47,489 bases of DNA, from the IMG/VR virus record IMGVR_UViG_2671180547_000013; one strand, given 5' to 3'. Positions 18,128 to 19,102 of the stretch are shown here, one piece after another. The notes under the pieces were generated by a model. It was not told the DNA's origin. It did no database searches and was given only the letters and a program-made list of their open reading frames with translations. Each line of letters opens with the position of its first letter. Positions within the stretch are counted from its first letter, which is position 1. Source of the DNA: a virus (lineage: Duplodnaviria > Heunggongvirae > Uroviricota > Caudoviricetes). A program made the position numbers and the translations under genes.

Positions 18128-18556
18128 ATGGGTTTTCGTAGCGCATCAATTCTTACGTTGATTATTAGTGGGATTATTATCGGGTGCACTGATGCTGTAT
18201 CGACAAATTATCATGACCGTACATCATATTACTCCGATAAAGCAATAGAGACACAGTATGTGAGTTCATCTGAACGTACTTCTGATGTTAGTGAGGATAT
18301 CCGTCTGTATGCCCATCAAATCAAGAGCGCCATCGAAAAACAGTTCGGGGATGCGAGTAAGTATTCAGGAAAAGAGTGTACACTGAGAATGCATATGGCC
18401 CCGAATGGCCTTCTACTGGAGGTTAAAAGAGAAAGTGGAGACCTCGATTTATGTCGTGAAGCGATGAATGCGATAAAGAATGCTGATATACCTGCCCCCC
18501 CTTCGCCGGAAGTATATAAAGTATTTCAAAATGGGGTGCTGGATTTTAAACCCTGA
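18128..18556 (+). CDS. Lipoprotein with TolA C-terminal (domain III)-like domain, 142 aa
   Basis: Signal peptide plus lipobox (IIIGC); C-terminal YAHQIKSAIEKQFGDASKYSGKECTLRMHMAPNGLLLEVKRESGDLDLCREAMNAIKNADIPAPPSPEVYKVFQNGVLDFKP resembles TolA domain III as recalled; GAGG Shine-Dalgarno. Confidence 0.7.
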   Translation: MGFRSASILTLIISGIIIGCTDAVSTNYHDRTSYYSDKAIETQYVSSSERTSDVSEDIRLYAHQIKSAIEKQFGDASKYSGKECTLRMHMAPNGLLLEVKRESGDLDLCREAMNAIKNADIPAPPSPEVYKVFQNGVLDFKP

Positions 18557-18706
18557 TATTTATTGTTTTGTAATAAACGGTTTCGGCTTAGGTTTGTTCT
18601 GACACAGCTACGGCACTGAGCTAAATTTAGCGGATAGTCAGCTCTGAGCCAGTGGCGGACGTAACAACTACTATTGCTGAGATTTTAATGGATTGAGGAG
18701 CAAGAA

Positions 18707-19102
18707 GTGGGATTAAAGAAAATCGTTATGTTGACTTTTTGGGTCGGTTTTGTTGCGGGATGCACACCTTTACACCCTTCAGATTGCCACAAAACTACTG
18801 CTACAGGTAGTTGCAGTTCAGGACGCTGGGATGATCAGGATGAATGGGGGGCGCAAGCGCGGGGAATCAGAGCTGCAATTAATGCCAAACTTGATGAGCC
18901 GCATAACTGGAAAGGGAAAAAATGCAGGTTGCATATGGAATTCTCTCAGGATGGCACGGCGTTAAAAATATCTACCAGTAACGGTGATAAAGCCTATTGC
19001 GAAGCGATAAAGTCCGCAGCTCATAAAGCCAAATTTCCGGCCTTCAACAATCCGGAAGTCTACAGAGATTTTCAGAAATCTGGCTTTGACATGCGAGGTT
19101 AG
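18707..19102 (+). CDS. Second lipoprotein with TolA domain III-like C-terminus, 131 aa (GTG start)
   Basis: Lipobox FVAGC; GAGGAG 6 nt upstream of GTG; C-terminal pattern IRAAINAKL...KGKKCRLHMEFSQDGTALKISTSNGDKAYCEAIKSAAHKAKFPAFNNPEVYRDFQKSGFD parallels the first lipoprotein. Confidence 0.65.
   Translation: MGLKKIVMLTFWVGFVAGCTPLHPSDCHKTTATGSCSSGRWDDQDEWGAQARGIRAAINAKLDEPHNWKGKKCRLHMEFSQDGTALKISTSNGDKAYCEAIKSAAHKAKFPAFNNPEVYRDFQKSGFDMRG

Follow-up and report, generated by a model that had tools for sequence, protein, structure and literature searches.

Why should a prophage carry, just ahead of its lysis genes, two small genes whose products each end in a copy of a domain of the host envelope protein TolA? 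The question is raised by IMG/VR virus record IMGVR_UViG_2671180547_000013, a stretch of 47,489 nucleotides (the window, in what follows) that represents a near-complete Rac-type lambdoid prophage of Escherichia coli. An earlier note, made from the sequence of the window alone, had described two tandem lipoproteins with C-termini resembling TolA domain III (TolAIII) between positions 18128 and 19102. Both open reading frames (ORFs) were confirmed within this interval at their exact coordinates, ORF1 (142 aa) at 18128-18556 and ORF2 (131 aa from a GTG start) at 18707-19102, each on the plus strand. The assignment of a TolA-type domain is not itself new, as it is already present in RefSeq, Pfam and PHROG, where PHROG 5772 is listed as 'unknown function'. 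The answer that is tentatively preferred here, with rather less than even confidence, is that the two proteins would act as decoys, tethered to the outer membrane, that intercept Tol-dependent bacteriocins and the pIII protein of filamentous phages.

Both C-terminal regions match Pfam family PF06519 above its cut-off of 25 bits (ORF1, 82.6 bits, 2e-23; ORF2, 54.6 bits, 1e-14). In ORF1, TolAIII spans residues 54-142 (positions 18287-18553), of which residues 55-142 align without gaps to residues 334-421 of E. coli TolA, with 52/88 positions identical (59%) and with LDFKP terminating both proteins. In ORF2 the domain spans approximately residues 45-131, and identity to E. coli TolA domain III is 34% over residues 51-129. 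The cysteines that form the TolA disulfide (C363 and C388) are retained, and are invariant in alignments of both subfamilies. In the AlphaFold2 models, pLDDT exceeds 90 in the domains and falls under 50 in residues 1-50 of ORF1 and 1-40 of ORF2. When these models were compared with the PDB using Foldseek, the top matches were the solved TolAIII structures 2x9a_B for ORF1 (TM 0.96, rmsd 0.6 A) and 3qdp for ORF2 (TM 0.92, rmsd 1.1 A), and TonB C-terminal domains were matched far below TolAIII. The superpositions rest on predicted models of ORF1 and ORF2, in which both proteins carry the three-helix, three-strand alpha/beta fold of TolAIII. Thus, the likeness to TolAIII proposed in the earlier note is borne out by profile, alignment and retained disulfide, and also by structure prediction and superposition, the check that the note had suggested; the fold is not an unrelated one.

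The N-termini are those of lipoproteins. Each protein has an n-region, a hydrophobic h-region and a lipobox that fits the pattern [LVI][ASTVI][GAS]C: the signal peptide of ORF1 is MGFRSASILTLIISGIIIG (residues 1-19), with IIIG preceding C20, and that of ORF2 is MGLKKIVMLTFWVGFVAG (residues 1-18), with FVAG preceding C19. The lipoboxes named in the earlier note (IIIGC and FVAGC) can therefore be read directly, and their cysteine is invariant in 16 ORF1-type and 124 ORF2-type homologues. The +2 residue is Thr in both ORF1 and ORF2, and is Thr, Ala or Ser across the homologues, never Asp; according to the E. coli sorting rule, the lack of Asp at this position predicts outer-membrane localisation by the Lol pathway. 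Judged by these signals, both proteins are probably lipidated and located in the outer membrane. The 25-33 residues between the lipobox cysteine and the domain are predicted to be disordered in both proteins. In ORF1 this stretch is a Ser/Thr/Tyr-rich linker (residues 21-53), and in ORF2 it is an N-terminal module (residues 20-48) that contains a Cys27-x8-Cys36 pair and the motif RWDDQDEWG. The start of ORF2 is annotated variably: RefSeq places it at the ATG at 18728 (124 aa), and copies on IncI plasmids and pO157 (L003 5995 and L093 4965) are called 12 codons too far upstream. The GTG at 18707 is supported by the homologues, all of which begin MG[VL]KK, and by a GAGGAG Shine-Dalgarno sequence 6 nt ahead of it (18695-18700, plus strand). 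ORF1 is preceded by the Shine-Dalgarno sequence GAGGA (18120-18124, plus strand).

In RefSeq, ORF1 is named 'cell envelope integrity protein TolA' because it passes model TIGR02794 (75.6 bits versus a cut-off of 59.45) through domain III alone. In ORF1, only the final ~95-98 positions of the TolA equivalog models are matched, and in ORF2 only the final ~80; the match is confined to model positions 265-362 or 293-386. For NF007065, the scores are 107.8 bits (ORF1) and 53.7 bits (ORF2) versus a cut-off of 213. The candidate identification of ORF1 as TolA was rejected, since the domain I anchor, the helical domain II and the tol-pal operon context are all missing. In place of the transmembrane domain I, both proteins have a cleavable lipoprotein signal at the N-terminus. 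The RefSeq name is therefore misleading.

A recent tandem duplication was likewise considered and rejected as the origin of the pair, because ORF1 and ORF2 are only 29% identical and have separate distributions; they are two lineages set side by side. Their resemblance to the ligand-binding surfaces of TolA also differs. The residues of TolAIII that contact its ligands have been defined experimentally, and colicins A and N and the filamentous-phage protein g3p bind this hub at about micromolar affinity by strand augmentation (PMC4339652, PMC3365938). As beta-strand augmentation is driven by the backbone, substitutions are tolerated. The beta3 strand LDFK, which is used by g3p-N1, colicin N and TolB, is identical in ORF1 and reads FDMR in ORF2, where it is still beta-forming; together with LDFR in a third lineage (see below), this is the best-kept surface element. 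Most residues of helix alpha1 (DI..YA.QIKSAIE) are kept in ORF1. The colicin A box LLDIKP reads LLEVKR in ORF1 and ALKIST in ORF2. Additionally, TolA K396 is kept in ORF1 and is His in ORF2, K368 is His in ORF1 and Glu in ORF2, and D377 is Glu in ORF1 and Lys in ORF2, the last two being reversals of charge in ORF2, which has lost most of the side chains that contact colicin A. By sequence, ORF1 thus appears to be a fairly faithful mimic of E. coli TolAIII, and ORF2 a remoter relative.

Both families are under purifying selection, and the genes are maintained rather than decaying. Among ORF1-type pairs, dN/dS is 0.26-0.39 overall (0.09-0.35 in the domain and 0.3-0.57 in the linker), and among ORF2-type pairs it is 0.07-0.15, with the linker constrained as much as the domain. 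The anchor-to-domain segment of ORF2, C-x-PLHPS-x-CHKTTATGSC-SSGRWDDQDEWG, is near-invariant in 124 sequences. As this segment is as constrained as the domain that it precedes, it is no mere tether but a functional module. Per-column conservation in the ORF2 family picked out no single binding face, the whole mature protein being conserved. The loss of colicin A contacts, taken with the near-invariant module, indicates that ORF2 is more than a simple tethered copy of TolA. The sequence SGRWDDQDEWG bears a weak likeness to the TolB box of colicins (DGSGWSSENNPWGG; W-x5-W versus W-x6-W).

Homologues of ORF1 are nearly restricted to E. coli and Shigella (46 clusters), and those of ORF2 are distributed far more widely (370 clusters). 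Copies ~88% identical to ORF2 are present on ~600 E. coli and Shigella plasmids, where they lie directly after the nikA/nikB relaxase genes (IncI1/K/B/O) or between hok/psiA and toxB (pO157). In ~20 Enterobacterales genera, ORF2-type genes are also found as single chromosomal copies, where phage and plasmid genes are lacking within 5 kb, and the strong conservation of these singletons shows that the function is independent of the lysis cassette. No consistent partner gene was found in the neighbourhoods of the chromosomal ORF2 homologues. For instance, glutathione peroxidase is encoded next to the homologue in some Enterobacter, Klebsiella and Kluyvera; in Serratia, the homologue has nrdDG and a GmrSD/HEPN pair as neighbours. 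A third lineage of lipoproteins (144 aa; lipobox LITA followed by Cys; 35% identical to ORF2) is carried by ~310 plasmids, mostly from Klebsiella, and both of the plasmids that were examined are IncF-type. When 1.84 billion representative proteins were searched with a profile, 576 relatives were recovered; among the best 150 of these, 95 are no longer than 165 aa, and at least 59 of those 95 have a lipobox. The BFVD viral structure library yielded no significant match.

Several further observations were made on loci that carry these homologues. On the Klebsiella IncF plasmid pMR0617ctx (L094 4217-4765), the TolAIII lipoprotein gene is preceded by a gene whose secreted product, of thioredoxin fold and with CVYC as its CxxC motif, may be a dedicated oxidoreductase for the lipoprotein disulfide. 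A Pantoea dispersa plasmid with a TolAIII lipoprotein gene (NZ_CP045217.1) also has a ~336-nt gene annotated as 'TonB family protein' (16672-17007; L095 10137-10240), which hints that isolated TonB C-terminal domains may be carried on plasmids too, as an analogous case for Ton-dependent colicins and phages. Finally, two 8-kb contigs (L105 and L106) in metagenome-assembled genomes of Lachnospiraceae and Treponemataceae contain nikA-nikB and an ORF2 homologue and are 98-100% identical to E. coli IncI plasmids; they are almost certainly mis-binned enterobacterial plasmid DNA.

In the window, the pair lies within the late region of the prophage. On the 5' side, the gene order is DUF1367, YbcO/DUF1364 and a DUF1133/antitermination-Q-like gene (16541-17083; DUF1133/Phage_antitermQ match), followed by ~1 kb of non-coding DNA and then ORF1. 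On the 3' side, ORF1 and ORF2 are followed by a P21-type class II holin (19354-19569, plus strand; Pfam PF04971, E 2e-35, and RefSeq annotation), a SAR-type lysozyme (19569-20066), Rz/Rz1, TrkG, a ParB-like gene and the terminase genes. All of the promoters and terminators named here are consensus matches only, and all are on the plus strand. A candidate late promoter of the pR' type (AAGACA-18-TATAAT) is located at 17454-17483, and a candidate late terminator of the tR' type, a hairpin with a T-run, at 17511-17530. They are followed by an RNA element of the STnc100 family (17831-18017, plus strand; Rfam RF02076, 86.6 bits versus a gathering score of 47). A promoter-like site of the cassette itself (TTGAGC-18-TATAAT, 10/12 consensus matches) is present at 18069-18098, 30 nt 5' of the ORF1 start, and is kept in variant loci that are 91% identical; a 66%-identical variant differs upstream. 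A weak promoter-like site (9/12) lies in the spacer between ORF1 and ORF2 (18599-18627). In the gap between ORF2 and the holin there is a GC-rich hairpin that resembles an intrinsic terminator, AGCTCGC-TACG-GCGAGCT (19228-19245), with a T-run (19228-19255 in all). With promoter-like and terminator-like signals of its own, the cassette is a candidate for expression in the lysogen.

The region is common and is exchanged as a unit. Positions 17700-19300 match many E. coli chromosomes at 100% identity. Of 5,426 complete genomes, 759 hold at least 80% of this region (so that ~14% of complete E. coli genomes have it), and in nearly all of them the identity is 99% or higher. Among 80 prophage contigs from IMG/VR, homology to the window is typically limited to ~17840-19570, with a left edge at 17799, 17840 or 17937 and a right edge at 19570 in most, so that the shared unit consists of STnc100, ORF1, ORF2, the terminator and the holin, with STnc100 marking its left edge and the end of the holin gene its right. 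Since the Q regions and endolysins around it differ, this unit is a recombination module. Variants of ORF1 (91% and 66% identical) are found without ORF2 in other lambdoid prophages, where they sit after Q and tRNA genes and before nanS-p, DUF1378, DUF826 and holin S. This is the position of stx in Stx-phage-type late regions, and the site has been described as a moron insertion site (PMC4104026). The cassette therefore has the location of a moron, lying between pR'/tR'-like signals and the lysis genes and being exchangeable between phages. With respect to the locus, the earlier note had placed the genes between the late terminator and the holin, where Stx phages carry stx, and had credited them with a downstream terminator of their own, all of which agrees with the features above (for the terminator, as a consensus match). 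Its description of the genes as low in GC holds only mildly, the values being 42% for ORF1 and 46% for ORF2 versus 47% for the window.

In one prophage (L101), three copies of STnc100 (5704-5877, 6599-6803 and 6854-7061) flank an ORF1 variant on both sides. STnc100 may thus be a repeated recombination or regulatory element that bounds late-region moron cassettes, as opposed to a free-standing sRNA gene.

If the proteins are receptor decoys, the following mechanism can be proposed. ORF1 and ORF2 would be exported, lipid-modified and sorted by Lol to the inner leaflet of the outer membrane, and a TolAIII copy would hang on its 25-33-residue tether just beneath that membrane. Because TolA domains I and II are missing, neither protein could couple to TolQR or transmit force, and the tethered copies would be dead ends. 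They would capture TolA-binding epitopes at the outer membrane, ahead of any contact with the genuine, energised TolA. Their targets would be the translocation domains of group A colicins and of related klebicins and cloacins, the N1 domain of filamentous-phage pIII, and also the N-terminus of TolB when it is exposed by nuclease colicins. Import would then stall, leaving the lysogen or plasmid host tolerant. The moron-like build, with a promoter-like site and a terminator before the holin, implies that the cassette could be expressed in the lysogen and also be read through from pR' late in infection.

We infer this putative function by analogy with the published behaviour of TolAIII in the periplasm. 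Levengood-Freyermuth and colleagues reportedly obtained tolerance to group A colicins from periplasmic TolAIII in 1993. When soluble TolAIII is exported to the periplasm, periplasmic proteins leak (PMC6195910), and when periplasmic pIII-N1 sequesters TolA, cells become resistant to colicin A and phage uptake is 4 logs lower (PMC10424213). TolAIII binds invaders with affinities of ~1 uM (PMC4339652) and TolB with affinities of 40-200 uM (PMC7391070). Given this difference, a decoy could trap invaders without disabling Tol-Pal. The distribution of homologues on plasmids also fits the idea. IncI and IncF plasmid families encode pili that are used by If1 and Ff phages, respectively. Both phages use TolAIII as co-receptor (PDB 2x9a and 1tol), and the solved structure of If1 g3p is in fact a complex with TolAIII (2x9a). 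Since IncI-complex and IncF plasmids make pili used by TolA-dependent filamentous phages, homologues on such plasmids are in keeping with a decoy. Similarly, the homologues are single, self-sufficient genes on mobile elements. The TolAIII fold with its disulfide, the ligand-binding elements kept in ORF1, the moron-like and mobile module, and low dN/dS with an invariant lipobox cysteine also count in favour of a decoy. A broader proposal, which is held more loosely still, is that mobile elements of Enterobacterales have repeatedly captured the TolA co-receptor domain and joined it to a lipoprotein signal as an outer-membrane receptor-decoy immunity, in which one small gene would give broad tolerance to Tol-dependent bacteriocins and pilus-specific filamentous phages, and by which conjugative IncI and IncF plasmids would offset the vulnerability caused by their own pili. 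On this proposal, the Cys-loop/RWDDQDEWG module of ORF2 might supply a further epitope, directed at TolB.

Several results weigh against a decoy role. ORF2-type proteins are near-invariant across ~20 Enterobacterales genera, including the 29-residue N-terminal module, a pattern more suggestive of an endogenous partner that is itself conserved than of an arms race against varied invaders. Over the domain, ORF2 shares only 34% identity with E. coli TolAIII and has reversed charges at colicin A contacts (K368 to Glu, D377 to Lys). A TolAIII decoy could also titrate TolB and thus be costly. The two distant relatives that were looked up are ordinary chromosomal singletons, and a tblastn search of 50,697 sequenced phage genomes found a homologue in only one, mEp460_ev081, so that cultured phages offered no clue to function. 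Neither ORF matched PADLOC-DB at E values up to 1. A full-text literature search found no paper, functional study or experiment on proteins of the ORF1 or ORF2 type, and the 'TolA protein' entries in published prophage gene lists are annotation only.

The same conservation can be read as a sign that the proteins are envelope lipoproteins whose TolA/TonB-type domain would dock, through strand augmentation, on a different partner in the outer membrane or the periplasm. They might, for example, exclude tailed phages or block conjugative entry, or have a physiological role for which mobile elements are no more than carriers, with the Cys-loop/RWDDQDEWG module of ORF2 as the specificity element. 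This is a possibility of some substance, albeit with a good deal less than even probability. Small TolAIII lipoproteins form a large family with ordinary chromosomal neighbourhoods, the N-terminal module of ORF2 is constrained like the domain, and plasmid copies lie just after the nikB relaxase gene or in the leading region; moreover, Cor, Llp and TraT are outer-membrane exclusion lipoproteins of mobile elements. However, gene neighbourhoods differ between genera and no candidate partner emerges from them, and the ligands of TolAIII named in the cited papers are TolB, colicins, g3p and, disputedly, Pal (PMC4339652, PMC7391070).

The main rival to a decoy function is a dominant-negative modulation of Tol-Pal, which we consider rather unlikely. 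In this case, the tethered TolAIII would bind the N-terminus of TolB in competition with TolA, Pal would not be released onto peptidoglycan, and the outer membrane would loosen. As part of the late transcript, this could aid envelope disruption at lysis, or it could increase the release of vesicles, which would act as sinks for phages or colicins. Such an effect would be in line with the leakiness of cells that export TolAIII (PMC6195910) and with beta3, the TolB-binding strand, being the best-kept surface in all three lineages, and the conservation of ORF2 across genera fits a conserved host partner such as TolB. A review also notes that regulation of vesiculation through TolB interactions is possible (PMC7391070). 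The genomic context points in both directions: the holin comes directly after the cassette and is inherited together with it, but a terminator-like hairpin stands between the two, and lysis genes are absent from the surroundings of the plasmid and chromosomal homologues. Additionally, the affinity between TolA and TolB is weak (40-200 uM), and purifying selection on the genes at core-like chromosomal sites sits poorly with the cost that a constitutive tol phenotype would carry.

It is very improbable that the ORFs are decaying, functionless fragments of a captured host tolA, since the exact host terminus LDFKP of ORF1, the match to only the end of the TolA models and some truncated copies in databases are outweighed by dN/dS values well under 1, an acquired signal peptide with an invariant lipobox, good Shine-Dalgarno sites on both ORFs, a family that spans prophages, plasmids and chromosomes, and an identity of ORF1 to TolAIII (59%, not near-identical) that argues for an old, maintained capture.

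Elsewhere in the window, an antitoxin sRNA, RalA, is encoded at 1557-1735 (Rfam, 225 bits), and the TrkG gene (20647-22122) follows Rz. These two features identify the element as an intact relative of the defective Rac prophage of E. coli K-12. Going by K-12 gene order, the TolAIII-cassette region has presumably been deleted from K-12 Rac. A variable slot was also observed upstream of DUF1367, where strain SCU-104 has the IteA/IteS anti-phage system at the same prophage position (L001 146-3539). In the window this slot (11774-13882 on the plus strand and 14503-14865 on the minus strand) contains two unannotated ORFs of 363 and 333 aa and a DUF1971 gene, and the DNA at 14750-15650 is very AT-rich (GC 0.25-0.34). 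The two ORFs gave only weak matches to HEPN/RES-NTD and GNAT and no PADLOC match. The slot may be a prophage defence hotspot that, in the window, holds a defence cassette yet to be characterised.

The significance of the cassette depends on which reading is correct. If ORF1 and ORF2 are decoys, broad tolerance to colicins and filamentous phages, independent of immunity proteins, would be determined by an accessory gene that is very common, with bearing on strain competition in the gut, on how bacteriocins and pilus-specific phages are designed as therapeutics against plasmid-bearing pathogens, and on how mobile elements repurpose parts of the host machinery. If they instead modulate Tol-Pal, the stability and vesiculation of the outer membrane would have in them a natural regulator, of a kind that has been proposed by Tol-Pal researchers but not found.

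Comparison with known systems helps to place both proteins. The closest is the host TolA domain III itself (TolA ~325-421; PDB 1S62, 3QDP, 1TOL and 2X9A), with which ORF1 and ORF2 have the fold and the disulfide in common, beta3 and helix alpha1 being largely kept. Unlike host TolA, they are without domains I and II and the tol-pal operon, cannot be energised by TolQR, and have their predicted anchor in the opposite membrane. Fusions of TolAIII to a signal sequence, made in the laboratory (Levengood-Freyermuth 1993; Wan & Baneyx 1998), likewise place an isolated domain III in the periplasm, uncoupled from TolQR. However, the engineered protein is soluble, has the unmodified host sequence and is over-expressed in the laboratory, whereas ORF1 and ORF2 are natural, diverged, predicted to be lipid-anchored, mobile and under purifying selection.

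Small outer-membrane lipoproteins of mobile elements that block the entry of competitors include Cor (phi80, N15 and mEp167), Llp (T5) and TraT (F), of which Cor and Llp confer protection against colicin M as well as inactivating FhuA. These proteins bind an outer-membrane receptor and are unrelated in sequence to ORF1 and ORF2, which are proposed to mimic a periplasmic co-receptor. Superinfection immunity by filamentous-phage pIII targets the same interaction, between TolAIII and N1, and leads to tolerance of Ff phages and colicins (PMC10424213). It would be the mirror image of a decoy: there, a phage ligand titrates the host receptor, whereas with ORF1 and ORF2 a copy of the receptor would titrate the incoming ligand. 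Lambdoid late-region morons (stx, bor, lom and nmpC) similarly lie downstream of pR'/tR' and before the lysis cassette, with promoter-like and terminator-like signals of their own. Their cargo is a toxin, a porin or a serum-resistance protein, whereas that of ORF1 and ORF2 is a copy of a host envelope domain. Exclusion lipoproteins and laboratory TolAIII decoys are already known, and a natural, widespread and lipid-anchored TolAIII family on mobile elements would be a new form of such proteins.

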